DNA of 13,196 nt. It comes from a virus. The notes beneath the pieces are model-generated. The model saw only the letters and a list, made by a program, of their open reading frames with translations, had not been told where the DNA came from and did no database searches. Made by a program: the position numbers and the translations under genes. Below are positions 1-13,196 of the stretch, in pieces (the first letter of the stretch is position 1; every line of letters starts with the position of its first letter). The stretch lies in IMG/VR virus record IMGVR_UViG_3300045988_146093; one strand, 5' to 3'.

Positions 1-30
1 AAAGTACCCCGTCCTCGATAGCAAGCAAGT

Positions 31-127
31 CACTTTCCCACTTTAGCATGGTAAAGTGCTAAAGTGCTAAAGTGATAAAGCAAGACAGCAATGCTTTAGT
101 GTAGTAAAGTGTTAAAGCGGTGAAGCG
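31..127 (+). repeat. Terminal iteron array based on the octamer (G/C)TAAAGTG
   Basis: Tandem GTAAAGTG, CTAAAGTG, CTAAAGTG at 51-74. A second triplet GTAAAGTG, TTAAAGCG, GTGAAGCG at 104-127. Inverted copies CACTTT at 31-36, CACTTTA at 39-45 and CTTTAG at 94-99. CACTTTA-N6-TAAAGTG forms an inverted repeat around 39-58. Confidence 0.85.
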
Positions 128-194
128 AGTACAAATAATTGGACAGTTGGCGAGTACAAATAATTGGACTGATAAAGTGTACAAATAATTGGAC
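125..194 (+). repeat. Three direct repeats of GTACAAATAATTGGAC with 25-bp period
   Basis: GCGAGTACAAATAATTGGAC at 125-144 and 150-169. GTACAAATAATTGGAC at 179-194. Repeat starts at 129, 154 and 179. Confidence 0.9.
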
Positions 195-302
195 AGATTA
201 GAAAATAAAAATAATACCCTTACGCAATAAAGAGCAAAAATATTTAGTTAAATAGAATTAACAAATACATAAAAGAAAAATATAATGTTTACAATTTATT
301 CA

Positions 303-331
303 TTGACAATTGCGGTGTGGTGTGATATACT
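303..331 (+). promoter_or_regulatory. Near-consensus sigma-A type promoter inside the left ITR, firing inward
   Basis: -35 TTGACA (303-308), a 17-nt spacer, -10 TATACT (326-331), with TG at 322-323... preceding as TGA-TATACT (extended -10 like). An AT-rich tract lies upstream at 200-300. The expected TSS is near 338. Confidence 0.75.
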
Positions 332-340
332 ATATATAGA

Positions 341-373
341 GTTAAGGGAGAGGAACAAAAGAAAAACCTTAAC
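341..373 (+). other. Leader stem-loop at the 5' end of the ITR-promoter transcript
   Basis: GTTAAGG (341-347) and CCTTAAC (367-373) are reverse complements with a 19-nt purine-rich loop, starting a few nt after the predicted TSS. Confidence 0.5.
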
Positions 374-388
374 AAACAAAATTTTAAA

Positions 389-406
389 AGTTGCAATATG
401 ACAACT
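389..406. promoter_or_regulatory. Degenerate copy of the 18-bp palindrome (AGTTGCAAtatgaCAACT) at the left ITR boundary
   Basis: 4 mismatches to AGTTGCAACGTTGCAACT, all within positions 9-13 of the motif (window 397-401). It is positionally equivalent to the perfect copy at 12791-12808. Confidence 0.7.
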
Positions 407-421
407 AGAAAGGATTTTATC

Positions 422-1075
422 ATGGAGAACATTATTAAATCAGAAAGCACAAACATCATGGACACATTTAAGAGCAACGCTCTTAGGGAAAGCACTCAGC
501 GTATCTTTACAAGAATGGTAAATGTAGAGGATAACAAAAAAGCTATCTGTACAGACCTTGCGGAGATTTACAACAAAGGTACATGGAAAGACGACTTCAG
601 CGACTTTGGCGACTACACAATGACAATGTTTAACATCACAAAGTCAACAGCGAGCCGTATGAGAAGAGTTTCTGACAAGTTCATAACTGACATTAACTCA
701 CCGCTCAACGCTGAAATGTTCACATTCAATCAGCTTGCCACCCTTGTTACTCTTGACAATGAAGTCATTGAGAACTCAATTGTCAATCCTGATATGACGA
801 TTAAGCAGTTGAGAGAATTTGTAAACAGCGTTAAGGCTCTTGAAATGAAAGACACAGAGGAACAGGAAGAGGAAGCAGAGGAAAAGGAAGAGGAAGTAAC
901 AACGGCTGAAAGTTGCAACGTTGCAACTAATGAAGAGGAAGCTTCGAGAGAGATGGTACACTTTGCAAATCTTAAAAATTTGTCAATATGGGTAAATGCA
1001 CTCATGGAGAAAAGAGAAAACCTTGAAAATATCGACATAAGTTTTGACGTTACAACAAAGCACACTGAGTATTAA
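422..1075 (+). CDS. Putative HTH DNA-binding protein (ParB/KorB-type HTH-like segment, acidic C-terminal half), first gene of the left operon
   Basis: The ORF track gives 398..1075. I prefer ATG 422 because GAAAGGA (408-414) lies 7 nt upstream, and the same SD is conserved at the right end, whereas ATG 398 has no SD. The segment WKDDFSDFGDYTMTMFNITKSTASRMRRVSDKF...FTFNQLATLVTL matches the W..F.e....g.s.stA.r.m.v..f...l..s.l..L pattern of ParB-family/DUF3102-type HTH proteins as I remember it. A Glu-rich run EEQEEEAEEKEEE follows. Confidence 0.55.
   Translation: MENIIKSESTNIMDTFKSNALRESTQRIFTRMVNVEDNKKAICTDLAEIYNKGTWKDDFSDFGDYTMTMFNITKSTASRMRRVSDKFITDINSPLNAEMFTFNQLATLVTLDNEVIENSIVNPDMTIKQLREFVNSVKALEMKDTEEQEEEAEEKEEEVTTAESCNVATNEEEASREMVHFANLKNLSIWVNALMEKRENLENIDISFDVTTKHTEY
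911..928. promoter_or_regulatory. Perfect 18-bp palindrome AGTTGCAACGTTGCAACT inside the HTH gene
   Basis: Exact match read directly. It encodes SCNVAT in the 422..1075 frame. Confidence 0.9.
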
Positions 1076-1087
1076 TTACTCAGTGTG
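1061..1087 (+). other. Perfect 11-bp-stem hairpin spanning the stop codon of the HTH gene
   Basis: CACACTGAGTA (1061-1071), loop TTAAT, TACTCAGTGTG (1077-1087). It is followed by an A-run rather than a U-run, so it is not a canonical + strand terminator. Confidence 0.6.
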
Positions 1088-1105
1088 AAAAAAAGAGTGA
1101 GTATA

Positions 1106-1330
1106 ATGAAAAGACTATTTATGTGTGAATGGTGTGGGGAAATTTATGACGACGAATTTAAAGCAAAGAAATGTGAAAGAGGTCATTTAATCCCCCTCAA
1201 CGTCACCCCCTCATATTACGATAATCAGAAGAAAATCCCTGAGTTAGTAACTGTTGATTTCGGTGAACATACAGAAATTTACAGACTTGTTGGTGGTAAC
1301 AAAGAAAAAATAGAGGGAGTTCAGCTATGA
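1106..1330 (+). CDS. Small zinc-finger-like protein (CxxC...CxxxH), function unknown
   Basis: The ORF track gives 1085..1330 from a GTG start. ATG 1106 yields MKRLFMCEWCGEIYDDEFKAKKCERGHL with C-x2-C-x14-C-x3-H. Its stop overlaps the next start as ATGA. Confidence 0.55.
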   Translation: MKRLFMCEWCGEIYDDEFKAKKCERGHLIPLNVTPSYYDNQKKIPELVTVDFGEHTEIYRLVGGNKEKIEGVQL

Positions 1331-1488
1331 AGATAACAATAAAATCAGTTGTTACAATCCTATTGACGATTGTATTTTGTCTGTTATCACTTGCAGGCAA
1401 GATAACAAGTGAGCAGTACATGACTGTATTTACTACAGTAATTGCTTTTTACTTTGGTACTCAGTTTTCAAAGAATGGTAAGGTGTGA
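1327..1488 (+). CDS. 53-aa two-transmembrane holin-like protein (absent from the supplied ORF track)
   Basis: Manual translation gives MKITIKSVVTILLTIVFCLLSLAGKITSEQYMTVFTTVIAFYFGTQFSKNGKV. SD AGAGGGA lies upstream and the ATGA overlaps the preceding stop. There are two hydrophobic helices and a short charged tail, and the gene sits directly upstream of the endolysin module. Confidence 0.6.
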   Translation: MKITIKSVVTILLTIVFCLLSLAGKITSEQYMTVFTTVIAFYFGTQFSKNGKV

Positions 1489-1489
1489 A

Positions 1490-1699
1490 ATGTGGAGTTC
1501 AATAATAGTTGCAGTGCTATCCCTGATAGGTACATTTATTGGCACTTATTCTGGGTTTAAGTTGACAGAATACAGGGTACAACAGCTGGAAAAACGAGTA
1601 GCAGAGCATAACAACTTTGCAAGGAGATTACCAGTTGTTGAAGAACAGATAAAGGTAATTAATCATCGTTTGAACGATTTAGAGGTGAAAGAAAAATGA
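1490..1699 (+). CDS. N-terminal TM plus coiled-coil protein associated with the lysis cassette (holin or antiholin-like)
   Basis: The ORF track gives 1442..1699. ATG 1490 has SD AAGGTG and avoids overlap with the 53-aa ORF. The product is MWSSIIVAVLSLIGTFIGTYSGF followed by a heptad-like charged region (QQLEKRVAEHNNFARRLPVVEEQIKVINHRLNDLE). An ATGA overlap links it to the endolysin start. Confidence 0.6.
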   Translation: MWSSIIVAVLSLIGTFIGTYSGFKLTEYRVQQLEKRVAEHNNFARRLPVVEEQIKVINHRLNDLEVKEK

Positions 1700-2364
1700 C
1701 GTTTAAGGAATATATTTCTAAAACCCTAGGAAAATCAATCGATTTTGACGGAGTTTACGGCTTTCAGTGTTGTGATTTAGTCAACGATTATATGCAGAAA
1801 TGTTTTAATATTTTTACATATTATCCATACAATTTCAATGCACAGCAGTATTTCACAAGGTTCAATGAGGTATCAGCTCTTGTAAAGAATTTTACAAAAA
1901 TTTCAAATACTCCTGATTTTGTACCAATGCAAGGTGATATTTGTATTTTTAAGTCGGCTGACAATATTGGTCATATCTCAATAGCAACGGGCGAGGGAAA
2001 TACAAGCTATTTTTACAGTTATGACCAAAACTGGAACGGGCACAATTTTGTAGCAAAAGAGAAGCACACGTATACTAATTTTTTAGGTGTTCTGAGGTAT
2101 AAAGGCAATTCACTTGACATTTCAGGACTAAAACGTGGAGATAATAACGCAGGTGTTTACGCTTACAAAATGATGTTAAAATTGGCAAAAACTTGCAAAA
2201 TAATTAGTACAAGCGTTGATTTTAACGGAATATACGGCAAAGGCACTGAAAAGGCTACAAATGAGATTTTGCGAAAGCTGAAAAAGAAAGAGAATGGAAT
2301 AGCAGGAGTAAAGTTAATCAACGCACTTTATGAAGCTATTCTTGACAAAATAGTTAATTTTTAA
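1696..2364 (+). CDS. Endolysin with an N-terminal CHAP domain and a C-terminal peptidoglycan-binding-like repeat
   Basis: CHAP signature YGFQCCDLV (catalytic Cys) and GDICIF...IGHISIATGE (catalytic His). The C-terminal segment GDNNAGVYAYKMMLKLA...DFNGIYGKGTEKATNEILRKL resembles the PG_binding_1 pattern. SD GAGGTGA. Confidence 0.85.
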   Translation: MTFKEYISKTLGKSIDFDGVYGFQCCDLVNDYMQKCFNIFTYYPYNFNAQQYFTRFNEVSALVKNFTKISNTPDFVPMQGDICIFKSADNIGHISIATGEGNTSYFYSYDQNWNGHNFVAKEKHTYTNFLGVLRYKGNSLDISGLKRGDNNAGVYAYKMMLKLAKTCKIISTSVDFNGIYGKGTEKATNEILRKLKKKENGIAGVKLINALYEAILDKIVNF

Positions 2365-2453
2365 CAAGTTAATACGTTATGTGAGCATTTAACAATACAA
2401 CAGACAATTGATAATAATTAATATTTTTTAAAAATAAGAGGTCTAAACCGCTA

Positions 2454-2483
2454 TTGTTATCTAACGTACATAACTATTATATT
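2454..2483 (+). promoter_or_regulatory. Candidate internal sigma-A promoter in the 171-bp non-coding gap
   Basis: TTGTTA (2454-2459), an 18-nt spacer, TATATT (2478-2483). The context is AT-rich, so false positives are likely. Confidence 0.3.
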
Positions 2484-2535
2484 ACGGTCACATAATATTG
2501 AACAAATTACAAAAACATGGAAAGAGGTTTTAAAC

Positions 2536-2874
2536 ATGAACGGATTTAACGTAAACATGACTAAAAAGGACATTTTTAATGCAAAGAGTGGGTCAATCTC
2601 AATCAGGACAGCAGAGGCAAGCGAGTGGCATACTGTATCAGGGTGTGCAGTGGTAGAAAATGGTGGAATCGACAGAGATAAGAATCCATGTGATATTGGC
2701 TATGTAGCTACAGAAATTGGAGTTTTCGGTTTCTCGTCAAAGGTTTGTCTTGACCACATGGAAGAATTGGCAGATATTCTCAGCGAGTGCCTTAATGACG
2801 GTGAAGAAGTAAAGGTAAGATTTGTCAAAGGTAAGTCAACTAACGGAGAGTTTTACTCAATTCAGATACAGTAA
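2536..2874 (+). CDS. Putative phi29 p5-like single-stranded DNA-binding protein
   Basis: SD AAGAGG. At 112 aa it is close in size to p5 (about 124 aa). The C-terminus FSSKVCLDHMEELADILSECLNDGEEVKVRFVKGKSTNGEFYSIQIQ aligns by eye with my recollection of phi29 p5 ([48 protein letters not shown]). Confidence 0.5.
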   Translation: MNGFNVNMTKKDIFNAKSGSISIRTAEASEWHTVSGCAVVENGGIDRDKNPCDIGYVATEIGVFGFSSKVCLDHMEELADILSECLNDGEEVKVRFVKGKSTNGEFYSIQIQ

Positions 2875-2904
2875 ATAACAAAATCGGCAAAACGTGGTGG
2901 CAAA

Positions 2905-2922
2905 AGTTGCCACGTTGCAACC
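2905..2922. promoter_or_regulatory. Palindrome variant AGTTGCcACGTTGCAACc upstream of the portal gene
   Basis: 2 mismatches to the consensus. It ends 19 nt before ATG 2942, with SD GAAAGGGG in between. Confidence 0.8.
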
Positions 2923-2941
2923 GATTGAAAGGGGTGAAAAA

Positions 2942-3898
2942 ATGGGTTCAAAAATAAAGCCGTGGAACTGGAGCGAGTTCGGAGTTTCAAACATAGACAA
3001 AACACAACTGACAAGCTACTATTACAAAATGTTGCTAAATCGTGTTATTAATATGTTTACATGGGGAAACCTACCAGACACCATTGATGAGCAAGTAATG
3101 AACTTTTGGTTATTTGTAACAGGAAGAGTTGTATTTACAGAATTTAACGGAAAGTTATATGCACTAAATGGAAATTATGGTGGCTATCCTAACGAGTATT
3201 ATTTACCTACTGAATTTGTTATTGCTAATCCAATTTTAGGAAGTAAAGTTGTAAAGTTGGACGTTGACGGAGTGGCAATGTTTAACAGTGATACGGATAA
3301 GTACCCAACGCAGGGGTTAGTAGGTGGTTTATATCCTATACTAACACTAACGGCAAATATGTTAGCTGATTGTGTGGTCACAATTTCCAGTGCATTGAAA
3401 AACGGCAGAGTTCAAACAGCGTTTTTGTGTAAGGACGATACAGTACGAATTGCAGGAGAAAAAGTTCTACAACAGTTATATAACGGCAACCCAGCTGTTA
3501 TGATTGACGACACAATTTTAAATTGTATTTCGCCTATCAAAATGGCAGATAATACAAGTGTTGCTACAATCCTACAGCAGACAATTGAAACGTATCAATT
3601 TTGGCTTGCAAATTTTTACAACTCAATAGGAGTAAACGCAAACTTTAACATGAAACGAGAACGGCTAAACACAGCAGAAGTCAATATTAATGATAGTGCA
3701 TTGTTTGTAAATGTTATTAATATGTTGAATAACCGACAGCAGGCACTTGAAAAAATTAACAAAATGTTTGGTACAAACATAACTGTTGAAATTTCTGAGG
3801 AATGGAAAGACTTGACAGAAACTGAGGAAACCCCTACAGAGGAAGAACCTACAGAGGAAGAGGGAAAAGACAATGCGGCAGATAATAACGCTGAATGA
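2942..3898 (+). CDS. Portal / head-tail connector (phi29 gp10 upper-collar family)
   Basis: The ORF track gives 2894..3898 from GTG. ATG 2942 has SD GAAAGGGG and leaves the palindrome non-coding. By-eye matches to phi29 gp10: [14 protein letters not shown] vs [35 protein letters not shown] vs [40 protein letters not shown] vs REEACEKINELYGLNVKVKF. Acidic C-terminal tail. Confidence 0.9.
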   Translation: [318 protein letters not shown]

Positions 3899-4550
3899 GT
3901 GGATTGAAAAGTTTCCCACTATAAATACTATTTTTGACAAGGTATCAGCAGACTTGAAATTATTTACAGTTTTTACATCGGCTGAAATGTTCTCATATTT
4001 TGTAAACAAGTTTGGTGAGCGTGGTTTTTATCTGTATTATGATAGCGAAAATGCAACAAATAATACTAATAGAGTGAAACAGGCAAGCGACTATATAGCA
4101 TTATATGGTAAATCTCACAAATACGAGTATGACAAGTTAGTCGATACTCTGTCATTGGAATATAACCCCATAGAAAACTACTCCATGACAGAAAAAGGAA
4201 CGGACACAAGAACGCCAAACATCACGCAAACAAACAAGGGTGTAAATACAAATACTGTAGGTGTTGACACGTCAATTACAACGGGTAAAACAACATTTGA
4301 CAAATCTGATAGTTTTATCAATGATACAAAAACTACCAATACGGGAACTAATACCGATACGCAGGATATAAACACTACAGTTACCACGGCAGGAAATGAA
4401 AAAACTGTACATGAATTTACAAGAAGTGGTAATATTGGTGTCACTACATCACAACAGATGATTGAAAGTGAACGTCAATTAGCAATGTTTTCTGTAGTTG
4501 ATTTATTCGTCAAAGCAATTGCAGATATTATTTTAATTGGTGTATATTAA
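3873..4550 (+). CDS. Putative lower collar / tail tube adaptor protein
   Basis: It follows the portal directly with a 26-nt overlap and SD GAGGAAGAGGGA. A long Thr/Asn-rich alternating segment (TDTRTPNITQTNKGVNTNTVGVDTSITTGKTT...) suits an extended beta-hairpin tube. The motifs YNPIENY and RSGNIGVTTSQQMIESE are ones I associate with small-podovirus collar/adaptor proteins. The assignment rests on position and composition. Confidence 0.45.
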   Translation: MRQIITLNEWIEKFPTINTIFDKVSADLKLFTVFTSAEMFSYFVNKFGERGFYLYYDSENATNNTNRVKQASDYIALYGKSHKYEYDKLVDTLSLEYNPIENYSMTEKGTDTRTPNITQTNKGVNTNTVGVDTSITTGKTTFDKSDSFINDTKTTNTGTNTDTQDINTTVTTAGNEKTVHEFTRSGNIGVTTSQQMIESERQLAMFSVVDLFVKAIADIILIGVY

Positions 4551-4552
4551 AA

Positions 4553-4570
4553 AGTTGCAACGTCGCAACT
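4553..4570. promoter_or_regulatory. Palindrome variant AGTTGCAACGTcGCAACT upstream of the capsid module
   Basis: 1 mismatch at motif position 12. It ends 20 nt before ATG 4591, with SD GGAAAGGAG in between. Confidence 0.88.
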
Positions 4571-4590
4571 AGGAAAGGAGAAAAAATAAA

Positions 4591-4878
4591 ATGCAAAAAG
4601 TGAGAAGTCCAACATATGCAGAGAATTACGTCAATCTTGCAAGAGCCGTTGTGCTAAAAGTAATAATAGACACTCTCCAAAATAAGGAAGATTTAAGGAA
4701 ATATATTTTATATAGTGATGATTTTGTGTTTTGGTTACGCCTTGCAGATTGGTTAAAATATGAAAATGTTATTAAAGATAAGTTTTCATATTTTAAAGGG
4801 ATTGACAGAACGTTAAAAAAGAAACTAAACACATATTACCGTCTTAAAGGTGAAGAAATGAAAAGAGGTAAATTATAA
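4591..4878 (+). CDS. Hypothetical 95-aa protein; scaffolding role possible from position only
   Basis: Strong SD, and its stop overlaps the MCP start (TAATG). It occupies the position of phi29 gp7 (98 aa) directly upstream of the MCP. Its aromatic and hydrophobic composition is not typical of scaffolds. Confidence 0.35.
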   Translation: MQKVRSPTYAENYVNLARAVVLKVIIDTLQNKEDLRKYILYSDDFVFWLRLADWLKYENVIKDKFSYFKGIDRTLKKKLNTYYRLKGEEMKRGKL

Positions 4879-6026
4879 TGAAAGTTACACAAATTGCCAC
4901 AATTTTGAATGAAGCACAAAAGGAAATAATCGGTGAGAGTGCTATAACAACGGAAAATCTTGAAAACGTTGTCGACATGGGCAAGCAGATACTTGAAGCG
5001 ACAGATGTTGACAATTACGTCCGCAAGCTGATTGACAAAGTCGGCAGAATGATTTTTGTCGATAGAGTTTATAACTCAACAGCTCCTGACATTTTGACAG
5101 ATAGCTGGGAATACGGGTCAGCAATGCAGAAAGTTCGTTGTGAAATGCCTGACGCTGTTGAGAATGACAGCTGGAAATTGACCAACGGTCAGAGTTATGA
5201 CCCATTTGTATTCACTGCACCTGACGTTCAGTCAAAATTTTATGACAGTAAGGTGACATACGAAGTGCAGATGTCATTTACAGAAATGCAAGTCAAGAGT
5301 GCATTTAATTCACCTACTGAAATGAACAGCTTTTTTGCAATGATTGAAAATCGTATCAGATTTAAGCTGACTTTGTCAAATGATATACTCAAAACAAGAA
5401 CCGTTAATAATCTCATAGCAGAAAAGATACACAGCAAAAACAACGTTGTTAATCTTTTGGCAATGTACAACGCAGAATTTACACAGACCCTAACAGCGGC
5501 ACACGCTCTTATGGATAAAGATTTTCTAAGATACGCAATCGGAAAAATCAAGGAGTATATCAAGTACATTCAGCGTCCGTCAATGTTGTTCAATGACGGC
5601 GGTTACACAACTTTCACCCCAGAAAGTGACATGAAAATGGTGCTTTTGTCAAGATTTGTAAATACGGCTGAGGTTTATTTACAGAGTGACACGTTCCATA
5701 ATGACCTTGTGAAGCTGAGTGGTTATTCTGAGGTTCCATACTGGCAGGGCAGTGGAACGGGTGAAACGTTTGATTTTGCAGAAATTTCAAAAATCGATGT
5801 TACAACTGCAAGCGGTAACGCAGTATCTCAGACAGGCGTTATCGGTACTATTTTTGACCGTGACGCTTGCATGGTATGTAACGCTAATCCAAGAGTTACA
5901 AGTATTTACAATCCAAAGGGCGAATACTGGAACTATTTTTATAAGTATGACGCAAGCTATTTCAATGATACCATGGAAAATTGTGTTGTATTTATAGTAG
6001 CAGACACAGCAAAAAAAACAGTATAA
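4878..6026 (+). CDS. Major capsid protein (phi29 gp8 family, HK97 fold, no obvious C-terminal Ig domain)
   Basis: SD AAGAGG. By-eye matches to phi29 gp8: NPKGEYWNYFYKYD vs NPRGLYWNYYYHVW near the C-terminus, and LIDKVGRMIFVDRVYNS vs LVDRIGLVVIRQVSLNN. At 382 aa it ends about where the gp8 core ends. Confidence 0.88.
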   Translation: MKVTQIATILNEAQKEIIGESAITTENLENVVDMGKQILEATDVDNYVRKLIDKVGRMIFVDRVYNSTAPDILTDSWEYGSAMQKVRCEMPDAVENDSWKLTNGQSYDPFVFTAPDVQSKFYDSKVTYEVQMSFTEMQVKSAFNSPTEMNSFFAMIENRIRFKLTLSNDILKTRTVNNLIAEKIHSKNNVVNLLAMYNAEFTQTLTAAHALMDKDFLRYAIGKIKEYIKYIQRPSMLFNDGGYTTFTPESDMKMVLLSRFVNTAEVYLQSDTFHNDLVKLSGYSEVPYWQGSGTGETFDFAEISKIDVTTASGNAVSQTGVIGTIFDRDACMVCNANPRVTSIYNPKGEYWNYFYKYDASYFNDTMENCVVFIVADTAKKTV

Positions 6027-6044
6027 CAAAATGATAGTTAAAAC

Positions 6045-6052
6045 GTTGCAAC
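6045..6052. promoter_or_regulatory. Extra half-site GTTGCAAC, 8 nt upstream of the full palindrome
   Basis: ACGTTGCAACC read directly. It sits in the MCP-tail intergenic region. Confidence 0.6.
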
Positions 6053-6060
6053 CCTAAAAA

Positions 6061-6078
6061 AGTTGCAACGTTGCAACT
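6061..6078. promoter_or_regulatory. Perfect 18-bp palindrome upstream of the tail module
   Basis: Exact AGTTGCAACGTTGCAACT. It ends 18 nt before ATG 6097, with SD GAGGTGA in between. Confidence 0.92.
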
Positions 6079-6096
6079 ATATTGAGGTGAGAAAAA

Positions 6097-6597
6097 ATGC
6101 CAATTATAACAACGTATCAATGTTCGCAGGATGTGAGAACTATTCAGAAAACAGTAACAAATCCAGTTGAATATAATTGTGAAATACTAAATAGTATGAA
6201 CAGTTTTTCACCCCGTATAAGATTATTCTGTACGTCTGAAACGTTCAACGCAAATATGACTTATATACCATTTTTTGATAAATTTTATCACATAATTTCA
6301 GCAGACGTTGAGAGTGCAGAAACCATTATTTTACAATGTGAGTTTGATATATTCACATATTCAGTAGCACTATTATCTAGCGAATTTTTAGTTACTAGAA
6401 ATGAAAATATTGGAAGTACATATATTCCTGATACAATGTTACCATTAAAAGGTAATAAGGAAATGAAAGTAATTGAATTTACTGGCGGTGATTTTAACCT
6501 AGACACTGCCACGGCAAACAGTTACAATTTTGTACTAAATGTAGCAGGTGGCGGAAGTAATCAAGGAACGGCGGAGAACGGGGGGCTAATAAAATGA
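6097..6597 (+). CDS. Tail knob N-terminal-domain-like protein (stand-alone)
   Basis: The segment NMTYIPFFDKFYHIISADVESAETIILQCEFDIFTYSVALLSSEFLVTRNE resembles the N-terminal region of phi29 gp9 as I recall it ([58 protein letters not shown]). An ATGA overlap links it to the next ORF. Confidence 0.55.
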   Translation: MPIITTYQCSQDVRTIQKTVTNPVEYNCEILNSMNSFSPRIRLFCTSETFNANMTYIPFFDKFYHIISADVESAETIILQCEFDIFTYSVALLSSEFLVTRNENIGSTYIPDTMLPLKGNKEMKVIEFTGGDFNLDTATANSYNFVLNVAGGGSNQGTAENGGLIK

Positions 6598-8642
6598 AAC
6601 TAAATACGGAAATATGGGGAACGGGTGAACAAATATCAGGTGCTCCACAAGGTTTTAAAGGATTAAGAGCAGATTTTCCAAGATTAGCTGAATGGATTGA
6701 TCAAGGAAAAGTTACACTAAACCAACATTTTGACCAATCATTTTTAATCGGAATAAATTTCAAAAATCCAAATTCTATAATGATGTGGTGTGATAGCTAC
6801 AATCGTGACCCCTCATTGAATACATTTTCTGACCCTATCGACACGGGAGTGTTTTTGGCAGGTACTGACGAAATGTCACGTTATGGCTCATACCCGGAAG
6901 TTTTACGGTGGAGAGTTGCATATGACCAAACAGAAACACCATATATCAATTATAAACCTCTTTTGAAATTTCCATTTAAAGGGCTGTGCTTTTTGCCAAT
7001 TATATATTCGTGTACTAACAAAGCAGTTACTAACCATTTACACAAGTTTTCAATAAATGATTATTATAATGGTGAAAATGAAAATACATACCCTTATATA
7101 GTAGGAATTGAATTATGTCCATATATTGGAAACGCAACTACAAGAGGGTTCTATTTAGATGGTTATATCGGTAGAATATCACCATGTATGTACGGGGATT
7201 TCCAAAATTTTAGAAAAGATACCTTATATACTAACGCCGAAATGTTTCCTATGGGTGGAAATTTATTTACAGACCGTTTAACATGGGGATTAATGAATGA
7301 AGATGTATACTATCATACAGGATTTAACACATTTGATTGGATAGCAAACACTCCCTATGGTGAAAAATTATGGGAATTTGTGGCAGGAATAAGAGTGCAT
7401 ACACATTTTAAGGGAACTAAAAATGATATTTTAAAAATGTGTGCAAATACGGGGTGTTATTGTGCGTTATCTGAAAATGCGGCTAAACGTGATGATTTAA
7501 ATAATCCTAGTAACAATATAATTATTGGAAAAATGAGTGAAGATGGTTCAATTTCCGATACTGTTTTGCAAGGTGAGGATATTAAAGATAACACACAGCA
7601 AGACAAATGGAATGACCCTGACGACACAGGAAACGGATTTGACGGCATTGAAAATACTGACCCAAATGACTACACAGACAAAATAGATTTGAATAAGCCT
7701 ACATTATCAAATGTAAACGTTTTTAACCGCAGTTTTGCAGTTAATGCAAATACTGTAAAAAATTTGGCTGATTTTTTATGGAACGCTGACGAAACTAAAT
7801 TTCAAGAAATTGTAAAAGGATTAGCATTAATGGGTGAAAATCCAATGAATGGTATAATTGATTTGCGTTTATTTCCGTTTAATGTAGCTTTGAAAAATTC
7901 TGCCATGCAAGCAGAACCCATTGTAATAGGCAGAACAAACACGGGTGTAAACGGTATCAAATTAACTGAAAATGTAAACAGTTTGATTGACCTAGGTGAA
8001 TGCACATTTTTCACTAAATTCAAAAATTTCCTAGATTATGAACCATACACGACAGCACAACTATATATTCCATATATTGGCGTTGTACCAGTTTCGACAG
8101 CTGAATTTATGGGGCATAGAATATCGGTTAAAATGATAGTTGACTATACCACGGGGGCAGGAACAGCAATTGTATTTAAAGACGATATACCATTTATTTA
8201 CAGAAATGGTGTAGTAGGTGTATCAGTTCCAATGACTGGAAATGACAGTGCAAGCTATGCAAATACAGTTATCGGAAATGTAGTTAGTGGTGCTATAGGC
8301 GGTGTAACATCAATTGCTAACGGAAATATAGGCGGTATGGTTAGCAGTGCTGAAAAATTGTATAGCGGTTTTGCAACTGGTACAAATTACCAAGAAGCAA
8401 GTGCAAGTTCTCCGTCTGTTGCAACGTGGCAACCGCAAAAATGTTATTTCATAATTGACCGTCCTATTTTAAATGTGCCTGATAATTACGGGCGAACGAT
8501 TGGTTTTGCGTGTGAAAAAACTGGTAAACTATCAGATTTTAAGGGTTTTACAGTTGTTAGCAACCCTGAAATAAATTTCAGATGTACAGACAGTGAAAGA
8601 CAATATATAGTAAATATGTTACAAGGCGGTGTATTTGTATGA
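6594..8642 (+). CDS. Tail knob / distal tail protein: gp9-like C-terminal half preceded by an unrecognised domain of about 330 aa
   Basis: C-terminal similarity by eye to phi29 gp9: YEPYTTAQLYIPYIGVVPVSTAEFMGHRISVKMIVDYTTG vs [38 protein letters not shown]; a Gly-rich loop VSGAIGGVTSIANGNIGGMVSS vs VGMLGGGVSAGASAVG; and a terminal ...GFACEKTGKLSDFKGFTVVSNPEINFRCTDSERQYIVNMLQGGVFV block with the same layout as the gp9 C-terminus. I do not recognise residues 1-330. Confidence 0.7.
   Translation: MKLNTEIWGTGEQISGAPQGFKGLRADFPRLAEWIDQGKVTLNQHFDQSFLIGINFKNPNSIMMWCDSYNRDPSLNTFSDPIDTGVFLAGTDEMSRYGSYPEVLRWRVAYDQTETPYINYKPLLKFPFKGLCFLPIIYSCTNKAVTNHLHKFSINDYYNGENENTYPYIVGIELCPYIGNATTRGFYLDGYIGRISPCMYGDFQNFRKDTLYTNAEMFPMGGNLFTDRLTWGLMNEDVYYHTGFNTFDWIANTPYGEKLWEFVAGIRVHTHFKGTKNDILKMCANTGCYCALSENAAKRDDLNNPSNNIIIGKMSEDGSISDTVLQGEDIKDNTQQDKWNDPDDTGNGFDGIENTDPNDYTDKIDLNKPTLSNVNVFNRSFAVNANTVKNLADFLWNADETKFQEIVKGLALMGENPMNGIIDLRLFPFNVALKNSAMQAEPIVIGRTNTGVNGIKLTENVNSLIDLGECTFFTKFKNFLDYEPYTTAQLYIPYIGVVPVSTAEFMGHRISVKMIVDYTTGAGTAIVFKDDIPFIYRNGVVGVSVPMTGNDSASYANTVIGNVVSGAIGGVTSIANGNIGGMVSSAEKLYSGFATGTNYQEASASSPSVATWQPQKCYFIIDRPILNVPDNYGRTIGFACEKTGKLSDFKGFTVVSNPEINFRCTDSERQYIVNMLQGGVFV
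8417..8434. promoter_or_regulatory. Palindrome variant tGTTGCAACGTgGCAACc inside the tail knob CDS
   Basis: 3 mismatches (motif positions 1, 12, 18). It encodes S-V-A-T-W-Q-P. Confidence 0.6.
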
Positions 8643-9190
8643 TGAATGAACATTTTGCAAGCGGTTTAACAAATGAGCAATTAAAAGCTGAGATTTTAAG
8701 GCAAGGGCGTAAAGCAAATTTACGCCTAAACCAATTGAAAAAAAGTGGGTATTACAAGAAAAACCCTATAATTATGGCGAAATGGAATACATTTCTAAAA
8801 GAAAACAAATTTTCAACTAAAAATAATTTTTTCAAAACGGGTTCAAAGGACGAAAACCGTGCAGATTTGTTAAAACATTATGTACAGATTAGACAGTTTT
8901 TAGGGCAACAAACGAGTGTAGCTGACACGAAAAAAATCATACACAAACACGCTTTGCGTTTGGAAGTTGAAGATGATACCGTTGAACGTGTACTAGAATT
9001 TTATGGAAATAATTCAATTTTAGGACAGCTGTCTAATAGTGATTATGCACAACAATTTGTGCGTGATATGGTCACAAAGGGATTTAATGATGATGAAATT
9101 AATGTGGTGTTAGATACCCTTGAAAAATCTGCAAAAACTGAAAGTGATATGACAGACTCTATGAGAAATTTTCTACAAACATTAGAATAG
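8639..9190 (+). CDS. Putative terminal protein (replication primer)
   Basis: It lies directly upstream of the protein-primed polymerase, as phi29 gene 3 does relative to gene 2. It has a basic N-terminal third (RQGRKANLRLNQLKKSGYYKK, loosely like phi29 TP KNTKAKIARTKKKYG) and an acidic C-terminus. At 183 aa it is shorter than phi29 TP (266 aa). The homology is weak. Confidence 0.5.
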   Translation: MMNEHFASGLTNEQLKAEILRQGRKANLRLNQLKKSGYYKKNPIIMAKWNTFLKENKFSTKNNFFKTGSKDENRADLLKHYVQIRQFLGQQTSVADTKKIIHKHALRLEVEDDTVERVLEFYGNNSILGQLSNSDYAQQFVRDMVTKGFNDDEINVVLDTLEKSAKTESDMTDSMRNFLQTLE

Positions 9191-9206
9191 TTGCAACGTT
9201 GCAACT
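9189..9206. promoter_or_regulatory. Perfect 18-bp palindrome upstream of the DNA polymerase gene
   Basis: Exact match. It overlaps the TAG stop of the preceding ORF (9188-9190) and ends 22 nt before TTG 9229, with SD AAAGGGG in between. Confidence 0.92.
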
Positions 9207-9228
9207 ATTTTGTAAAGGGGTGTAATAG

Positions 9229-11367
9229 TTGATAAATGTAAATGATTTTGATTTTAATATTCTAAAAAATAGTAATTTACAAACAGTTACAACCCGTACA
9301 CGGGATAATCAATATATTGAATATTATAATACCCCGTTTGCGTTTGATATTGAAACTAGCTCATTTTATGACAGCGAAAACAAAAGAGCGTGTATGTATA
9401 TTTTTATGTTTGCATTAAACGGAAACTATGTATACGGCAGGACATGGGAAGATTTTGATTTTACATTGAATAAGTTAAAAGAGGTACTACAATTAAATGA
9501 ATACAGAAGAATTATAATATATATTCACAATTTAGGTTATGAATTTCAATTTCTAATCGGTCATGAGCAGTTCAAAGACGTTTTTGCAAGAAATGCTCGC
9601 CACCCTATTAAGTGTACTATGAATGACTGTTTTGATTTGAAATGTAGTCTAATGCTGAGTGGTATGAGTTTAGCTAAAACCGCAGAAGATTTGACAAGTG
9701 TAAAAATACAAAAATTAACAGGTGATTTAAACTATAAACTATTAAGAACATGGAGAACTCCACTTACCAAAAATGAATTGGCATATTGTGAGCATGACGT
9801 TAAAATTTTACACTATTTTATTCTTGAAGAAATGAGTAAAAATGATAACAATATCACAAAAATCCCATTAACAAAAACGGGGTATGTAAGAAAATATTGC
9901 CAAAACTACATTAAGAAACATACATATTATCCAAAATATAGAGAAAAAATTAAGAAGATAGCCCCAGTTGATAAAGATTTATTTTGCCTATTGCACAAAA
10001 GTTTCATGGGTGGATATACTCATTCGAATTATATGTATGTAGGAATGGTATTGGAAAATGTTGCTAGTATAGATTTTACAAGTTCCTATCCGTCCGTTAT
10101 GATACGAAAAAAGTACCCCATGCAACCATTTACAAAACCCCGTATAAAGGATTTAAAAGATTTTAGATATTGTATTAAAAATTATCCGTGCGTTTTTGAA
10201 GTTGAATTAACTAACGTTACCGCTAAAAAATGCAATCATATTTTGTCACGTTCAAAATGTTCTGTTTGTGATAATGCTGTTGTTGATAATGGACGAATTG
10301 TATCAGCAGATAGGATATTTACATATTTTACAGATGTTGACTTTAAGGACTTTGAACAATTTTATTCTTATGAACATTTGTCAATTGGCAATTTTTACAC
10401 GTCTAGTTATGGATATTTGCCAAAACAGATTATAGAATGTGCGTTAAAATTTTACAACGACAAAACCACCCTAAAAGGTGTAGCAGGAAAAGAAGTTGAG
10501 TATCTAGTCGGCAAAGGTATGCTAAATAGTTTATTTGGAATGTGCGTAACCAATCCTGTTAATGATGATATTGTTTTTAATGGCAAAGAATGGAACACAG
10601 AAAAGAAAGATATTTCAGAAGCATTACAAGAAAATTACATAAAGAATAAAAAACAAGTATTAGTATATCAGTGGGGTGTGTGGATTACTGCATGGGCTAG
10701 GCACGAACTTTTTAAAGGTATATTGAAAATTAATGAAGATGTTATTTATTGTGATACGGATAGTATAAAATTCTTAAACTATGAAAATTATGAAAACTGG
10801 ATAAATGAATATAATAAGAATTGTATTAATGAGATAAACAAGGCTTTAAATTATTATGAAATCGATTTGAATTTAGCTAAACCAAAAACAATTAAGGGCA
10901 TTAAAAAACCGTTAGGGGTATGGGATTTTGAGGGAATTTATTCAAAATTCAAGACTTTAGGTGCAAAGCGTTACGCTTATGAACAAGACGGGAAATTTAA
11001 TATTACAGTTTCAGGACTAAATAAAAAATGTGCCGTTCCGTACATAGTTGCAACGTCGCAACCGTTTGAATTTTTTGACAATGAAATGTATATACCGAAA
11101 GAGTATACGGGCAAAAATACATTGACATATATTAATGACCCATACAAAATTATGGTAAAAGACTATCAAGGAAATTATGCCGAGGTATCTGAAAATAGTT
11201 ACATACATATGGAAGAACAGGATTATAACATGGCACTATCCGAACAATTCATATATTATTTAATGTGTGGTACAAATTTCGGTAGTGGTGCAAAAGAGCA
11301 TACATTATTTGAGAAAAGCCAAGAATTGGCTACAAATTTCTGGGAGTGTGATTTTAATGAGAAATGA
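9229..11367 (+). CDS. Protein-primed family-B DNA polymerase (phi29 gp2 type)
   Basis: All hallmark motifs are present: ExoI FAFDIETSS; ExoII YIHNLGYEFQFL; ExoIII YCEHDVKIL; motif A DFTSSYPSVM; motif B KGMLNSLFGM; WGVWITAWARH (phi29 MGVFITAWARY); motif C VIYCDTDSIKF; KxY GAKRYAY. The start is TTG with SD AAAGGGG 8 nt upstream. Confidence 0.97.
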   Translation: MINVNDFDFNILKNSNLQTVTTRTRDNQYIEYYNTPFAFDIETSSFYDSENKRACMYIFMFALNGNYVYGRTWEDFDFTLNKLKEVLQLNEYRRIIIYIHNLGYEFQFLIGHEQFKDVFARNARHPIKCTMNDCFDLKCSLMLSGMSLAKTAEDLTSVKIQKLTGDLNYKLLRTWRTPLTKNELAYCEHDVKILHYFILEEMSKNDNNITKIPLTKTGYVRKYCQNYIKKHTYYPKYREKIKKIAPVDKDLFCLLHKSFMGGYTHSNYMYVGMVLENVASIDFTSSYPSVMIRKKYPMQPFTKPRIKDLKDFRYCIKNYPCVFEVELTNVTAKKCNHILSRSKCSVCDNAVVDNGRIVSADRIFTYFTDVDFKDFEQFYSYEHLSIGNFYTSSYGYLPKQIIECALKFYNDKTTLKGVAGKEVEYLVGKGMLNSLFGMCVTNPVNDDIVFNGKEWNTEKKDISEALQENYIKNKKQVLVYQWGVWITAWARHELFKGILKINEDVIYCDTDSIKFLNYENYENWINEYNKNCINEINKALNYYEIDLNLAKPKTIKGIKKPLGVWDFEGIYSKFKTLGAKRYAYEQDGKFNITVSGLNKKCAVPYIVATSQPFEFFDNEMYIPKEYTGKNTLTYINDPYKIMVKDYQGNYAEVSENSYIHMEEQDYNMALSEQFIYYLMCGTNFGSGAKEHTLFEKSQELATNFWECDFNEK
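11046..11063. promoter_or_regulatory. Palindrome variant AGTTGCAACGTcGCAACc inside the polymerase CDS
   Basis: 2 mismatches (motif positions 12, 18). It encodes I-V-A-T-S-Q-P, the same frame as the 8417 copy. Confidence 0.75.
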
Positions 11368-12448
11368 ATACTATTCACTAAAAAAGATTAATAAGTTAAA
11401 TGCACTATACAATTTAATTATAGGGCAACGTTCAAACGGTAAAACTTATGCAGTGTGTGAGCAGGAAATAAAAGGTTACTTTAAAGAAGATTTTCGGCTT
11501 GCGTATATAAGACGATATGATGAGGAAATAATGCCCAAAAATATACAGAATTTATTTAAACCGCATTCGGCTTTAATTGAAAAATTATCTAACGGGCAGT
11601 TTAACAGCACTGTATACAAGAATAGGGAGTTTTTCCTATATAATACAGATACGGAAGAAAAAAGCGAACAAAGTTTTTGCAAGTGTTTTTCGCTTAACGC
11701 ATGGGAACGTACAAAAGGTGCTGATAATGGCTACTTTAAATATATATTATTTGACGAATTCATGACCCGTTCGTTTTATCTTAATAATGAATTTGTTATA
11801 TTTACTCAACTTTTATCTTCTGTTATGCGTGATAGAGATAACACTATTATTTACATGATTGCAAATACTGTCAATCAATACTGCCCTTATTTTGCTGAAA
11901 TGGGTTTAGGCAAAATTTCAGATATTAAACAGGGTGACTTGAAATTATTTACATATGGTGATAGTGAATTAACCTTAGCTTTAGAATACTCAGACAGCAG
12001 AGGTCAAACTGGAAAAGTTAGTAAATACTTTGCGTTTGACAACCCACAATTGAAAATGATAACCACGGGGCAGTGGGAGATTAAAAACTACCCACACGCC
12101 CCATTTAAGATTCAAAAGGAAAATATTGTATATAGAGCTTATATATTTTTTGATAGTGACATTATAGCTTGTAATATTATACATTATAACAATAACGTAT
12201 TTCTATTTTTTAACATTCAAACAAAAACGGAAAATCTCGATTTAAAAAAGAGGATTGTATACAGTTTTGAAACTGATACGAACCCCCTACACGTCCAGTC
12301 ACTAGCAGAACAGCCGACAGACGTACATAAACTTATTAATAATTTAATAACATTTAATCGTGTGTTCTATGCGGATAATTCAGTAGGTGAAATTGTTAGA
12401 AACTGGATAAACGCACAAAGCAAGCACGCTATTAGCATAAGGGCATAA
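11357..12448 (+). CDS. DNA encapsidation ATPase (phi29 gp16 family)
   Basis: The ORF track gives 11267..12448. ATG 11357 overlaps the polymerase stop by 11 nt and gives MRNEYYSLKKINKLNALYNLIIGQRSNGKTYAV, collinear with phi29 gp16 (...YDRILNFVIGARGIGKSYAMK). Walker A is GQRSNGKT and Walker B is YILFDEF. Confidence 0.92.
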   Translation: MRNEYYSLKKINKLNALYNLIIGQRSNGKTYAVCEQEIKGYFKEDFRLAYIRRYDEEIMPKNIQNLFKPHSALIEKLSNGQFNSTVYKNREFFLYNTDTEEKSEQSFCKCFSLNAWERTKGADNGYFKYILFDEFMTRSFYLNNEFVIFTQLLSSVMRDRDNTIIYMIANTVNQYCPYFAEMGLGKISDIKQGDLKLFTYGDSELTLALEYSDSRGQTGKVSKYFAFDNPQLKMITTGQWEIKNYPHAPFKIQKENIVYRAYIFFDSDIIACNIIHYNNNVFLFFNIQTKTENLDLKKRIVYSFETDTNPLHVQSLAEQPTDVHKLINNLITFNRVFYADNSVGEIVRNWINAQSKHAISIRA

Positions 12449-12487
12449 AAATAACCCCGTGAGTTTTTTCTCACGGGGTTATTTTTT
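12449..12487. terminator. Bidirectional rho-independent terminator between convergent genes
   Basis: AAATAACCCCGTGAG (12449-12463), loop TTTTTT, CTCACGGGGTTATTT (12470-12484): a 15-bp stem with a GC core, flanked by an A-run upstream and a T-run downstream, so a U-tract follows the hairpin on both strands. Confidence 0.88.
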
Positions 12488-12488
12488 G

Positions 12489-12773
12489 TTATATCACATA
12501 ATCCCTTAACACTGCTTGAATGTTTGTCATAGTAGGTTTTACATATTCCTTGTCGTAAACGTCACATAGTAAATCACTTATGTTTTCATATCTATTGTAA
12601 CCACTTAAAACTCTCTCTTGATTATCTAAAAACCACTCAACAGTTGCACAAGCAACTGTATTTGTTACAATATCAAATATAATCATTACAATTGGCTCAC
12701 CTGACTTATTTGCACTGTTATATCTGCCTACTGCCTTTTTAATTCCTTTAACCTCTGTACCATTAATTTTCAT
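12489..12773 (-). CDS. Hypothetical 94-aa protein, the only minus-strand gene, driven by the right-ITR promoter
   Basis: From the ORF track. SD GAAAGGA lies 9 nt upstream of the ATG. It is bracketed by the perfect palindrome/ITR promoter and the bidirectional terminator. I recognise no family motif. Confidence 0.75.
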   Translation of the reverse strand: MKINGTEVKGIKKAVGRYNSANKSGEPIVMIIFDIVTNTVACATVEWFLDNQERVLSGYNRYENISDLLCDVYDKEYVKPTMTNIQAVLRDYVI

Positions 12774-12790
12774 AATAATCGTTCCTTTCT

Positions 12791-12808
12791 AGTTGCAACG
12801 TTGCAACT
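12791..12808. promoter_or_regulatory. Perfect 18-bp palindrome straddling the right ITR boundary
   Basis: Exact match. Its left half (12791-12800) lies outside the perfect ITR and its right half inside. It ends 17 nt from the minus-strand start codon at 12773. Confidence 0.92.
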
Positions 12809-12823
12809 TTTAAAATTTTGTTT

Positions 12824-12856
12824 GTTAAGGTTTTTCTTTTGTTCCTCTCCCTTAAC
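12824..12856 (-). other. Leader stem-loop of the right ITR transcript (mirror of 341-373)
   Basis: Identical sequence by ITR symmetry. Confidence 0.5.
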
Positions 12857-12865
12857 TCTATATAT

Positions 12866-12894
12866 AGTATATCACACCACACCGCAATTGTCAA
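12866..12894 (-). promoter_or_regulatory. Near-consensus sigma-A promoter inside the right ITR, firing inward
   Basis: Mirror of 303-331. On the minus strand it reads TTGACA (12894-12889), a 17-nt spacer, TATACT (12871-12866). Confidence 0.75.
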
Positions 12895-13002
12895 TGAATA
12901 AATTGTAAACATTATATTTTTCTTTTATGTATTTGTTAATTCTATTTAACTAAATATTTTTGCTCTTTATTGCGTAAGGGTATTATTTTTATTTTCTAAT
13001 CT

Positions 13003-13166
13003 GTCCAATTATTTGTACACTTTATCAGTCCAATTATTTGTACTCGCCAACTGTCCAATTATTTGTACTCGCTTCACCGCTTTAACACTTTACTACACTA
13101 AAGCATTGCTGTCTTGCTTTATCACTTTAGCACTTTAGCACTTTACCATGCTAAAGTGGGAAAGTG
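13003..13166 (-). repeat. Mirror copies of the terminal iteron arrays
   Basis: GTCCAATTATTTGTAC at 13003-13018, 13028-13043 and 13053-13068. CACTTTA(G/C)-type octamers at 13070-13093 and 13123-13146, with inverted copies out to 13166. Confidence 0.88.
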
Positions 13167-13196
13167 ACTTGCTTGCTATCGAGGACGGGGTACTTT

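Follow-up and report, generated by a model that had tools for sequence, protein, structure and literature searches.

Genes and palindromic sites of the genome

The DNA considered here, IMG/VR virus record IMGVR_UViG_3300045988_146093 (the window, meaning the whole stretch of 13,196 nucleotides), is a complete linear phage genome of 13.2 kb with a perfect 396-bp inverted terminal repeat (ITR), whose termini start with AAAGTA. It encodes a phi29-type connector and a CHAP endolysin, and its major capsid protein, protein-primed B-family DNA polymerase and packaging ATPase have been identified via homology to annotated relatives. An 18-bp palindrome, AGTTGCAACGTTGCAACT, recurs along this genome, and the product of its first gene, gp1, is the candidate for the protein that reads it. 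The gene and the copies of the palindrome are listed below in window coordinates.

389..406: ITR-boundary copy, 4 mismatches; about 50 nt past the predicted ITR transcript start and 15 nt before the gp1 ATG
422..1075, + strand: gp1, 217 aa, candidate motif reader; ParB/Spo0J/Noc-like core at aa 1-152, DUF3102-like
911..928: exact copy within the gp1 gene, where it encodes SCNVAT of the acidic linker
2891..2901: degenerate arm resembling a half-site; it can pair with the first half of the 2905 copy, which would give an RNA hairpin of -23 kcal/mol
2905..2922: GTTGCCAC variant, 2 mismatches; followed after 19 nt by the ATG of the portal gene
4553..4570: 1 mismatch; lies 2 nt past the stop codon of gene 3873-4550, with the ATG at 4591 following after 20 nt
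6036..6053: 3 mismatches, with a good right half (6045-6052); precedes the exact copy at 6061 by 25 bp
6061..6078: exact copy; 18 nt before the ATG at 6097; 17-bp hairpin possible with the 6036 copy
8417..8434: 3 mismatches; inside a 682-aa tail-region gene; across the 16-bp core it reads as the 2905 variant in reverse complement
9189..9206: exact copy; overlaps the TAG with which 8639-9190 ends and precedes the start of DNA polymerase by 22 nt; each arm of the palindrome extends to 13 bp
11046..11063: 2 mismatches; within the gene for DNA polymerase, where it encodes IVATSQP in a loop that varies across the family
12791..12808: exact copy on the inner edge of the right ITR, followed after 17 nt by a minus-strand gene start

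When up to three mismatches are allowed, the palindrome matches nine times in the window against 0.01 expected, a count reached in none of 200 dinucleotide shuffles, so that chance is excluded, as the original prediction had argued. The scan recovered the four exact 18-mers reported there (911, 6061, 9189 and 12791) and the variants at 4553 (1 mismatch), 2905 and 11046 (2 mismatches) and 8417 (3 mismatches). The half-degenerate site reported at 389 holds as a tenth copy (AGTTGCAATATGACAACT), while the extra half-site reported at 6045 is part of a further 3-mismatch copy, at 6036.

The motif was also said to mark every gene-module boundary. Six copies do end 15, 19, 20, 18, 22 and 17 nt before the start codons of genes 422, 2942, 4591, 6097, 9229 and 12773 (the last on the minus strand), which are the distances originally given. 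Two gaps on the plus strand (1076-1084 and 2365-2535) hold no copy, and three copies (911, 8417 and 11046) are intragenic, in gp1, the 682-aa tail-region gene and the DNA polymerase gene. Moreover, the claim is partly circular, because most gaps exist only where the motif and a Shine-Dalgarno (SD) sequence sit. Most copies are preceded by a conserved run of A, and a -10-like TAGAAT adjoins the copy at 9189.

Conservation in close relatives

A search of related genomes, proposed with the original prediction, found the motif conserved in 18 IMG/VR contigs of 12-13 kb that are 84-90% identical to the window (19 genomes with the window). In the whole-genome alignment of this family it is present at every orthologous position, amid indel-rich intergenic sequence. 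The 16-bp core, GTTGCAACGTTGCAAC, is almost invariant, and variation falls mostly at 18-mer positions 7/12 and 1/18 and is site-specific; for example, the 2905 site reads GTTGCCAC in 18 of the 19 genomes. The copy at 389 is degenerate in the window genome only, with at least 15 of the 18 relatives carrying the 16-bp consensus core there, which explains why the perfect ITR of the window ends 10 bases short of the end of terminal homology in its relatives. The feature is thus real and conserved.

The three intragenic copies are informative about the level at which selection acts. Third-codon positions vary far less within their cores (0.01-0.06) than in the 300 nt that flank them (0.20-0.23), which indicates that the nucleotide sequence itself is under selection. 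The copy in the DNA polymerase gene falls in a stretch that is not conserved across the protein family.

Gene order and site positions are otherwise fixed in the 19 genomes. At the right ends of three relatives (L021, L033 and L036) lie extra small minus-strand genes, each with its own copy of about 45 nt comprising an A/T-rich stretch, the motif and an SD, as if the genes had been added as motif-headed cassettes. These additions, and the fact that ITR homology ends at the motif, would be expected if identical 18-mers served as crossover points for module exchange between co-infecting phages. However, the remaining order is fixed and no recombinase gene is encoded in the window, copies inside genes cannot border a cassette, 18 bp offers little length for homologous exchange, and such additions could be a by-product of any repeated sequence. 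A role as cassette boundary is therefore highly improbable.

The first early protein as candidate reader

gp1 is predicted to consist of a core (aa 1-152) with a helix-turn-helix (HTH) at about aa 62-88, an acidic disordered linker and a small C-terminal beta-alpha-beta domain. AlphaFold2 models reach a pLDDT of 85 for the full-length protein and of 89.6 for the core (pTM 0.80), and the model is all-helical over residues 4-151. In a Foldseek comparison of the core model with the PDB, 25 of the 26 top matches are ParB/Spo0J/Noc DNA-binding domains, a consistent list though its E-values are weak (0.06-3, with probabilities up to 0.99 and TM scores of 0.4-0.53). The matches include the DNA complexes 4umk, 6s6h, 6y93 and 7ol9, several of them bound to parS or Noc-binding-site (NBS) DNA. 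The full-length model also has Spo0J, ParB and Noc as its best structural matches, and the neighbours of gp1 in a viral structure library (BFVD) include DUF3102 and 'chromosome partitioning'/Spo0J-like proteins. The modelled fold points to a DNA-binding protein, in line with the earlier choice of the 422-1075 product as one of two candidate binders. The ParB N-terminal CTPase (ParB/Srx) domain was not found: the GERRxRA motif is absent from gp1 and there is no ParBc match in Pfam. Searches of PDB sequences with gp1 or its profile returned coiled-coil noise only. One of the sites of the array lies inside the gp1 gene itself and another directly upstream of it.

The relation of gp1 to DUF3102 is suggested by a near-identical protein that is named DUF3102 in one database and by weak matches to the family in four of 61 diverse gp1 homologues (best E 2e-4). 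The DUF3102-like family is widespread in phages, with 151 clusters at 50% identity in a library of 1.8 billion proteins, and no functional literature on DUF3102 was found in the literature searched. A bona fide DUF3102 open reading frame (ORF) is found on an unrelated contig of a metagenome-assembled genome (MAG) with 54% GC (L042:206-1234; 27 bits against a cut-off of 24.4), and it carries an exact 18-mer in its coding sequence (589-606, KVATLQL), which parallels the site at 911 inside gp1. The copies at 8417-8434, 11046-11063 and L042:589-606 are all read in a V-A-T-x-Q-(P/L) frame, in three unrelated genes; the copy in gp1 is read in another frame (SCNVAT).

Palindromes and gp1 in sister lineages

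Genomes of the wider clade, roughly 340 members, were collected by DNA polymerase alignment, with 44 gp1-less genomes of at least 9 kb as the comparison set; several lineages (L119, L122, L074, L065 and L120) were recovered through gp1 homologues. A gp1 hidden Markov model (HMM) matches the first gene in seven lineages with palindromes (L119, MT836125, MT836155, L122, L074, L065 and L120) and none of the 44 other genomes of the same DNA polymerase clade; an eighth gp1 lineage, L051, was reached only by a broader profile (E 1.6e-5). Dispersed palindromes were counted in six gp1 lineages, five having 4-10 copies and L120 only one. The 44 gp1-less genomes have no dispersed palindrome, with at most two copies of any (the ITR pair). 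gp1 is the one protein whose distribution cleanly tracks the palindromes.

Each of the eight sampled gp1 lineages has its own palindrome, dispersed in at least six. MT836125 carries eight copies of GTTCGACGTCGAAC, and MT836155 carries 11 copies of GTTCAAC-N-GTTGAAC, mostly intragenic. The architecture of both is the same as that of the window, many copies standing before an SD and start codon and many inside genes. The palindrome is GTTGCC-N4-GGCAAC in L119, TACAATCGATTGTA in L122, TCTAGT-TG-ACTAGA in L074 and TGTAGT-TG-ACTACA in L065. In L120 it is TCCG-N6-CGGA, at two sites adjoining sigma-70 promoters. In L120 and MT836155 the equivalent site is at or just past the predicted transcription start, the classical position of an operator. 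The predicted recognition helix of gp1 (aa 74-88) differs among lineages with different palindromes, and it is near-identical only between the window and L119 (TKSTASRMRRV and SKSVASRMRNV), whose palindromes have the arms GTTGC./.GCAAC in common. Repeats seen in L068, L072 and L105 were dropped as candidate sites, having turned out to be coding tandem repeats.

Several genomes of the clade carry canonical parS sites. Four gp1-less genomes with 44% GC (L086, L091, L098 and L110) have two or three tandem copies of TGTTTCACGTGGAACA per ITR at a spacing of 42 bp (for example L098:205-304 and 11498-11555), a hint that these linear genomes draw host ParB to their termini. In MT836125 (L050), two canonical parS sites accompany the lineage's own palindrome.

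Spacing of the sites and folding of the transcript

The sites are spaced more evenly than random in the window (coefficient of variation [CV] 0.37, P 0.006), in MT836125 (CV 0.33, P 0.005), in MT836155 (CV 0.17, P <1e-5) and in L074 (CV 0.41, P 0.02). Together with the selected intragenic copies and the mostly intragenic sites of MT836155, the even spacing fits a property of the DNA molecule rather than of cistron boundaries.

The original prediction had offered, besides a set of DNA operators, a hairpin acting at the RNA level. On a long polycistronic transcript, such a hairpin between an upstream stop codon and the downstream SD would be a processing site or translational insulator: RNase III could cut the long double-copy hairpins, and RNase Y/J-type cleavage could fall in the A-run, leaving the hairpin as a 5' stabiliser. 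The six copies placed 15-22 nt before start codons, directly past stop codons, and the conserved upstream A-run would suit this role. So would the regions 2891-2922 and 6036-6078, each a full site with an upstream half or degenerate copy, which fold as interrupted 17-bp hairpins at -23 and -21.7 kcal/mol (z -3.7 and -4.3). The 9189 palindrome, with 13 bp per arm, folds to -17 kcal/mol. In three relatives both arms at 6036/6061 have changed together (U-A to G-C, plus a G-U wobble), and in unrelated phages with the same core (below) the motif sits 0-3 nt past stops and 0-40 nt before starts.

Most of the array does not behave in this way. Single copies form 7-bp stems whose energies in context (-7 to -10 kcal/mol) do not surpass those of shuffled sequence (z -0.3 to -2.4); for L122, L074 and L065 the motif alone gives only -1.5 to -2.9 kcal/mol. 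Stems of the RNase III kind (roughly two helical turns, more stable than shuffles and noncoding) are predicted only at 2891-2922 and 6036-6078. RNase III hairpins between genes of T7 and of Bacillus phage SP82 punctuate long transcripts, and the SP82 sites are alike in sequence and structure; the stems there are of about 20 bp with internal loops, whereas in the window single copies have 7 bp, two loci have 17 bp and three copies are intragenic. Cleavage at these three copies, which are conserved at synonymous positions and one of which lies in the essential DNA polymerase gene, would destroy the mRNA. Substitutions within the motif, mostly at positions 7/12, tend to break the would-be base pair rather than preserve it by wobble, and the seemingly compensatory change at 6036/6061 uses a 7/12 variant that is tolerated at other sites. 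A purely structural signal would not need one sequence in all copies of a genome, nor would it account for evenly spaced sites. Where the centre of the motif is asymmetric, copies are found both along and against the direction of transcription (2905 and 8417; L074 and L065), and no Rfam family matches the motif. An RNA by-function is possible at the 2891-2922, 6036-6078 and 9189 loci, above all at the two long hairpins; as the explanation of the whole array, an RNA-level element seems unlikely. Intrinsic terminators on the plus strand were rejected, since no U-run follows; on the minus strand several copies are terminator-like in the window, but not so in other lineages.

Internal middle or late promoters, used by host RNA polymerase with gp1 as activator or sigma-like factor and giving one transcript per module, would also place the motif end 15-22 nt before start codons, leaving short SD-containing leaders. 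The TAGAAT adjoining 9189 could be part of such a promoter, as could the sigma-70-like -35/-10 pairs that overlap the first motif bases at some sites of the unrelated phages. There is no -35/-10 conserved at a fixed distance, either in the family alignment of the window or at 138 oriented sites of the unrelated phages, and on this ground the sigma-70 promoter reading was dropped. A perfect palindrome cannot by itself set a direction, the window encodes no RNA polymerase, and a core promoter would find no space between the start codon and an activator site whose centre is only about 25-30 bp away. The intragenic copies and even spacing would also go unexplained, so that a promoter or activator site is decidedly improbable. 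Sigma-54 and ECF-sigma promoters and LacI/cre and PurR operators, compared by eye, misfit in spacing.

The same core in unrelated phages and in host genomes

The core TTGCAACGTTGCAA is dense (1-2 per kb) in unrelated phage contigs with 42-55% GC from soil, rhizosphere, moss and marine samples, termed G2 here. These include contigs L004, L012, L025, L037, L011, L020 and L022 and metagenome loci such as L211, L158, L174 and L221; it is dense too in 77 of 113 metagenome contigs, which lie in the 42-54% part of that GC range. In one motif-dense group the contigs measure about 17 kb and encode a large terminase, HNH and an SU10-type adaptor; another has AAA_24, DUF669 and UDG genes. G2 sites stand 0-3 nt past stop codons with the next start codon 0-40 nt on, often 0; no SD and no conserved promoter accompanies the 138 oriented sites. 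When a protein common to the window family and the other motif-rich phages was sought by phmmer, family HMMs, the A1 profile, hhalign on 504 ORFs, a recognition-helix regular expression and three Pfam/PHROG rounds, the DUF3102 ORF of L042 was the only result. Another reader must therefore exist in the G2 phages and could in principle exist here, which lowers confidence in gp1 as the only reader. The shared core could reflect a reader of another family with the same specificity, a shared factor or mutual pairing of sites.

In 185,579 species genomes (596 Gb), the exact 18-mer occurs at 11 loci, about chance level, so that no host regulon is visible; two multi-copy or linked loci among them are on mobile-element-like contigs, and one of the 11 is the copy in the DUF3102 gene of L042. 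A host chromosomal repeat of the REP or uptake type, a possibility that the original prediction had named against itself, was rejected for this reason, the sole multi-copy case being a mobile-element-like contig. On Treponema sp. MAG113 contigs (L039:1636-5682 and L048:5048), six copies, of which three match the 18-mer exactly, fall within 8 kb that carry genes for an integrase, a topoisomerase, a HicAB pair and a relaxase (an integrative element); they are mostly flanked by A-runs and T-runs and look like bidirectional terminators with a fixed stem sequence. In another phage group (L014, L024, L032, L035 and L001) the motif occurs once or twice, always after GGGTGGAA. Contigs of this group encode a 161-aa protein with two HTHs (HTH_23/HTH_28 and sigma-70 region-4-like) and, separately, an ORF that resembles the ParB N-terminal domain by eye, with no Pfam match.

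These distributions bear on whether the factor is encoded by the phage at all. The reader could be a DNA-binding protein of the host, or one that several mobile elements have in common, comparable to the use of host Spo0J sites and Spo0A boxes on phi29. The parS sites of phi29, five in number, are used by host Spo0J (PMC2731898). The core is dense in unrelated phages, in the Treponema MAG element and in many environmental contigs that have no protein in common with the window, and the tandem canonical parS in the ITRs of gp1-less relatives indicates that host ParB is used in the clade. However, the 18-mer is at chance level in species genomes, sister lineages that share a habitat have each a palindrome of their own, which varies with their gp1, and those sister motifs are not shared with unrelated phages. 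A factor of this kind is rather improbable for the window.

Comparison with known systems

The reading of the palindromes as DNA operators had been put forward by analogy with KorB-OB of plasmid RK2 and with ParB-parS. The modelled fold of gp1 and its co-occurrence and co-variation with the palindromes make it the better supported of the two original readings; the likeness to ParB-parS is incomplete, as the motif is not a canonical parS and neither a CTPase domain nor a ParA was found. KorB of the IncP plasmid RK2 is a ParB-family HTH protein that binds many dispersed sites (OB core TTTAGCGGCTAAA) in or near intergenic control regions, including that of its own operon (PMC11790492). The window is similar in that many dispersed palindromic operators, 9-10 in 13.2 kb and conserved in 19 genomes, would lie on the element encoding their candidate binder. 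It differs in that KorB has a CTPase/clamp domain and works with KorA, whereas gp1 lacks a CTPase domain and no partner for it is visible. The two systems have unrelated site sequences, and the window is a linear 13-kb protein-primed phage genome of lytic type with even spacing and several intragenic sites.

The linear phage-plasmid N15 has four separate 16-bp palindromes (GTGCGACCnnGGTCGCAC) bound by its own SopB and no clustered centromere (PMC7205306). As in the window, with its predicted binding by gp1, dispersed palindromes for an own ParB-type protein are found on a linear phage genome. N15, however, has full SopA/SopB partition and a plasmid prophage state, whereas the window has no ParA-type ATPase, CTPase domain or sign of lysogeny functions; no ParA-type (Walker) partner candidate was found among its 16 ORFs, the phi29-type packaging ATPase (11357-12448) being its sole ATPase. 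The motif resembles parS in its 16-bp length and central ACGT, but the canonical parS TGTTNCACGTGNAACA has no match in the window at up to three mismatches. In phi29 and the gp1-less gut relatives canonical parS is read by a host protein, whereas the window has its own candidate reader. Lacking CTPase, ParA and canonical parS, the system does not belong to ParABS, and it shares with it a modelled ParB-type HTH.

The stoperators of mycobacteriophage L5 are reportedly about two dozen short repressor sites, mostly in gene gaps, at which the bound protein blocks elongating RNA polymerase. They differ from the sites of the window in being asymmetric 13-mers in fixed orientation that serve a prophage repressor, the window sites being palindromic, in either orientation and with no evident lysogeny. 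The statement that no such motif has been described for phi29-like phages agrees with the literature searched, in which the motif string was not found; a 2024 review of phi29-like phages makes no mention of ParB, palindromes or operators.

Proposed role of the palindrome and gp1

The features of the genome ends that enter the proposed function are the following.

1..396: left ITR, perfect copy of 12801-13196; its inner edge lies inside a motif copy
258..331, + strand: two strong sigma-70-like promoters ahead of gp1 (consensus scan only)
12489..12773, - strand: 94-aa early gene; the predicted right-ITR promoters would drive it through a motif copy

The original prediction saw one strong promoter per strand, but each ITR has two by consensus scan. 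Those on the left are TTAACA-17-TATAAT (258-286) and TTGACA-17-TG-n-TATACT (303-331), and the pair is mirrored on the minus strand at 12866-12939. The single terminator described there was found again, as one strong bidirectional terminator at 12447-12486.

Altogether, we lean, with modest confidence, towards gp1, the first early protein of the phage, recognising the palindrome in DNA as an operator or a parS-like site. Binding of gp1, and an effect of that binding, are inferred from the sites, their conservation and spacing, the modelled fold, co-occurrence and co-variation, and we are less confident about the physiological output than about the binding relationship. gp1 would be made first, from the strong host-type promoters in the left ITR, and its dimers would then occupy the 9-10 sites, about one every 1.5 kb along the 13-kb linear genome. 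The ITR-boundary sites (389 and 12791) lie between the early promoters and the first gene at each end, about 50 bp past the predicted transcript start, and abut the first-gene SD; a dimer bound there may hinder elongation as a roadblock, giving autoregulation and early shut-off. The other sites would fill the few intergenic gaps and, where there are none, lie inside genes, retained by selection at the nucleotide level. These internal sites may be further roadblocks or anchors for a higher-order complex, and all sites together would form a genome-wide regulatory or architectural array.

Several observations weigh against this assignment. The E-values of the structural matches to gp1 are weak, and gp1 of the window is below every Pfam threshold, with no DUF3102 (PF11300) match at E<=0.1. 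Two structural proteins are distributed similarly to gp1, if less cleanly, and the phyletic pattern of gp1 and palindromes may reflect a single clade with few independent events. No homologue of gp1 or DUF3102 was found by HMM or hhalign in the unrelated phages dense in TTGCAACGTTGCAA. With a single early promoter, it is difficult to see how late genes could be expressed past roadblocks, unless gp1 occupies its sites dynamically or there are internal promoters. The tight arrangement of stop codon, motif and SD, the conserved A-run and the long hairpins at 2891-2922 and 6036-6078 would also fit a role at the RNA level.

A bolder proposal, which we regard as doubtful, joins two ideas. A ParB-fold protein lacking the CTPase would, with evenly placed palindromes, give the smallest tailed phages a chromatin-like scaffold or 'distributed centromere' on their linear genomes, coupling early autoregulation to genome organisation or a hidden carrier state; and the same 14-18-bp word would punctuate genes in unrelated phages and an integrative element, implying a widely exchanged reader or a protein-independent pairing code.

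If gp1 is the reader of the palindromes, the DUF3102-like family, widespread in phages, would gain a first function and an exact DNA target, and ParB-fold DNA-binding domains would be able to work without the CTP clamp as dispersed-site regulators. The array would also offer a plausible genome-wide control for astrithr/phi29-like gut phages, which seemingly have terminal promoters only. The eight protein/site pairs would provide a ready data set for the evolution of ParB-type specificity and could be used as orthogonal operator and binder parts.

Other features of the genome and its nearest relatives

The ITR holds, besides the terminal AAAGTA and the two sigma-70-like promoters, TAAAGTG units with an 8-bp period and three 25-bp direct repeats. 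The units, TAAAGTG(C/A/T), and the direct repeats, centred on GTACAAATAATTGGAC, lie at 33-128 and 125-199 (mirrored on the right); they probably belong to the replication origin or bind some other protein, and they are distinct from the palindrome. A hairpin with an 11-bp stem at 1061-1087 (CACACTGAGTA...TACTCAGTGTG) covers both the stop codon of gp1 and the GTG at which the next ORF begins, with no U-run on the plus strand.

No close relative at the DNA level was found among GenBank phages. As a correction to the phi29-like label given originally, the nearest isolates by DNA polymerase are Astrithrvirus-type phages at about 42% identity and not phi29 itself. Two unannotated human-faecal contigs, the sister genomes MT836125 and MT836155, have 32-36% identity by DNA polymerase, and contig names in a metagenome scan place the family in human gut samples. 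The largest intergenic gap of the window (2365-2535, 171 nt), one of the two that lack the motif, is AT-rich and contains several pairs of promoter-like hexamers, so that an internal promoter serving the structural genes may lie there.

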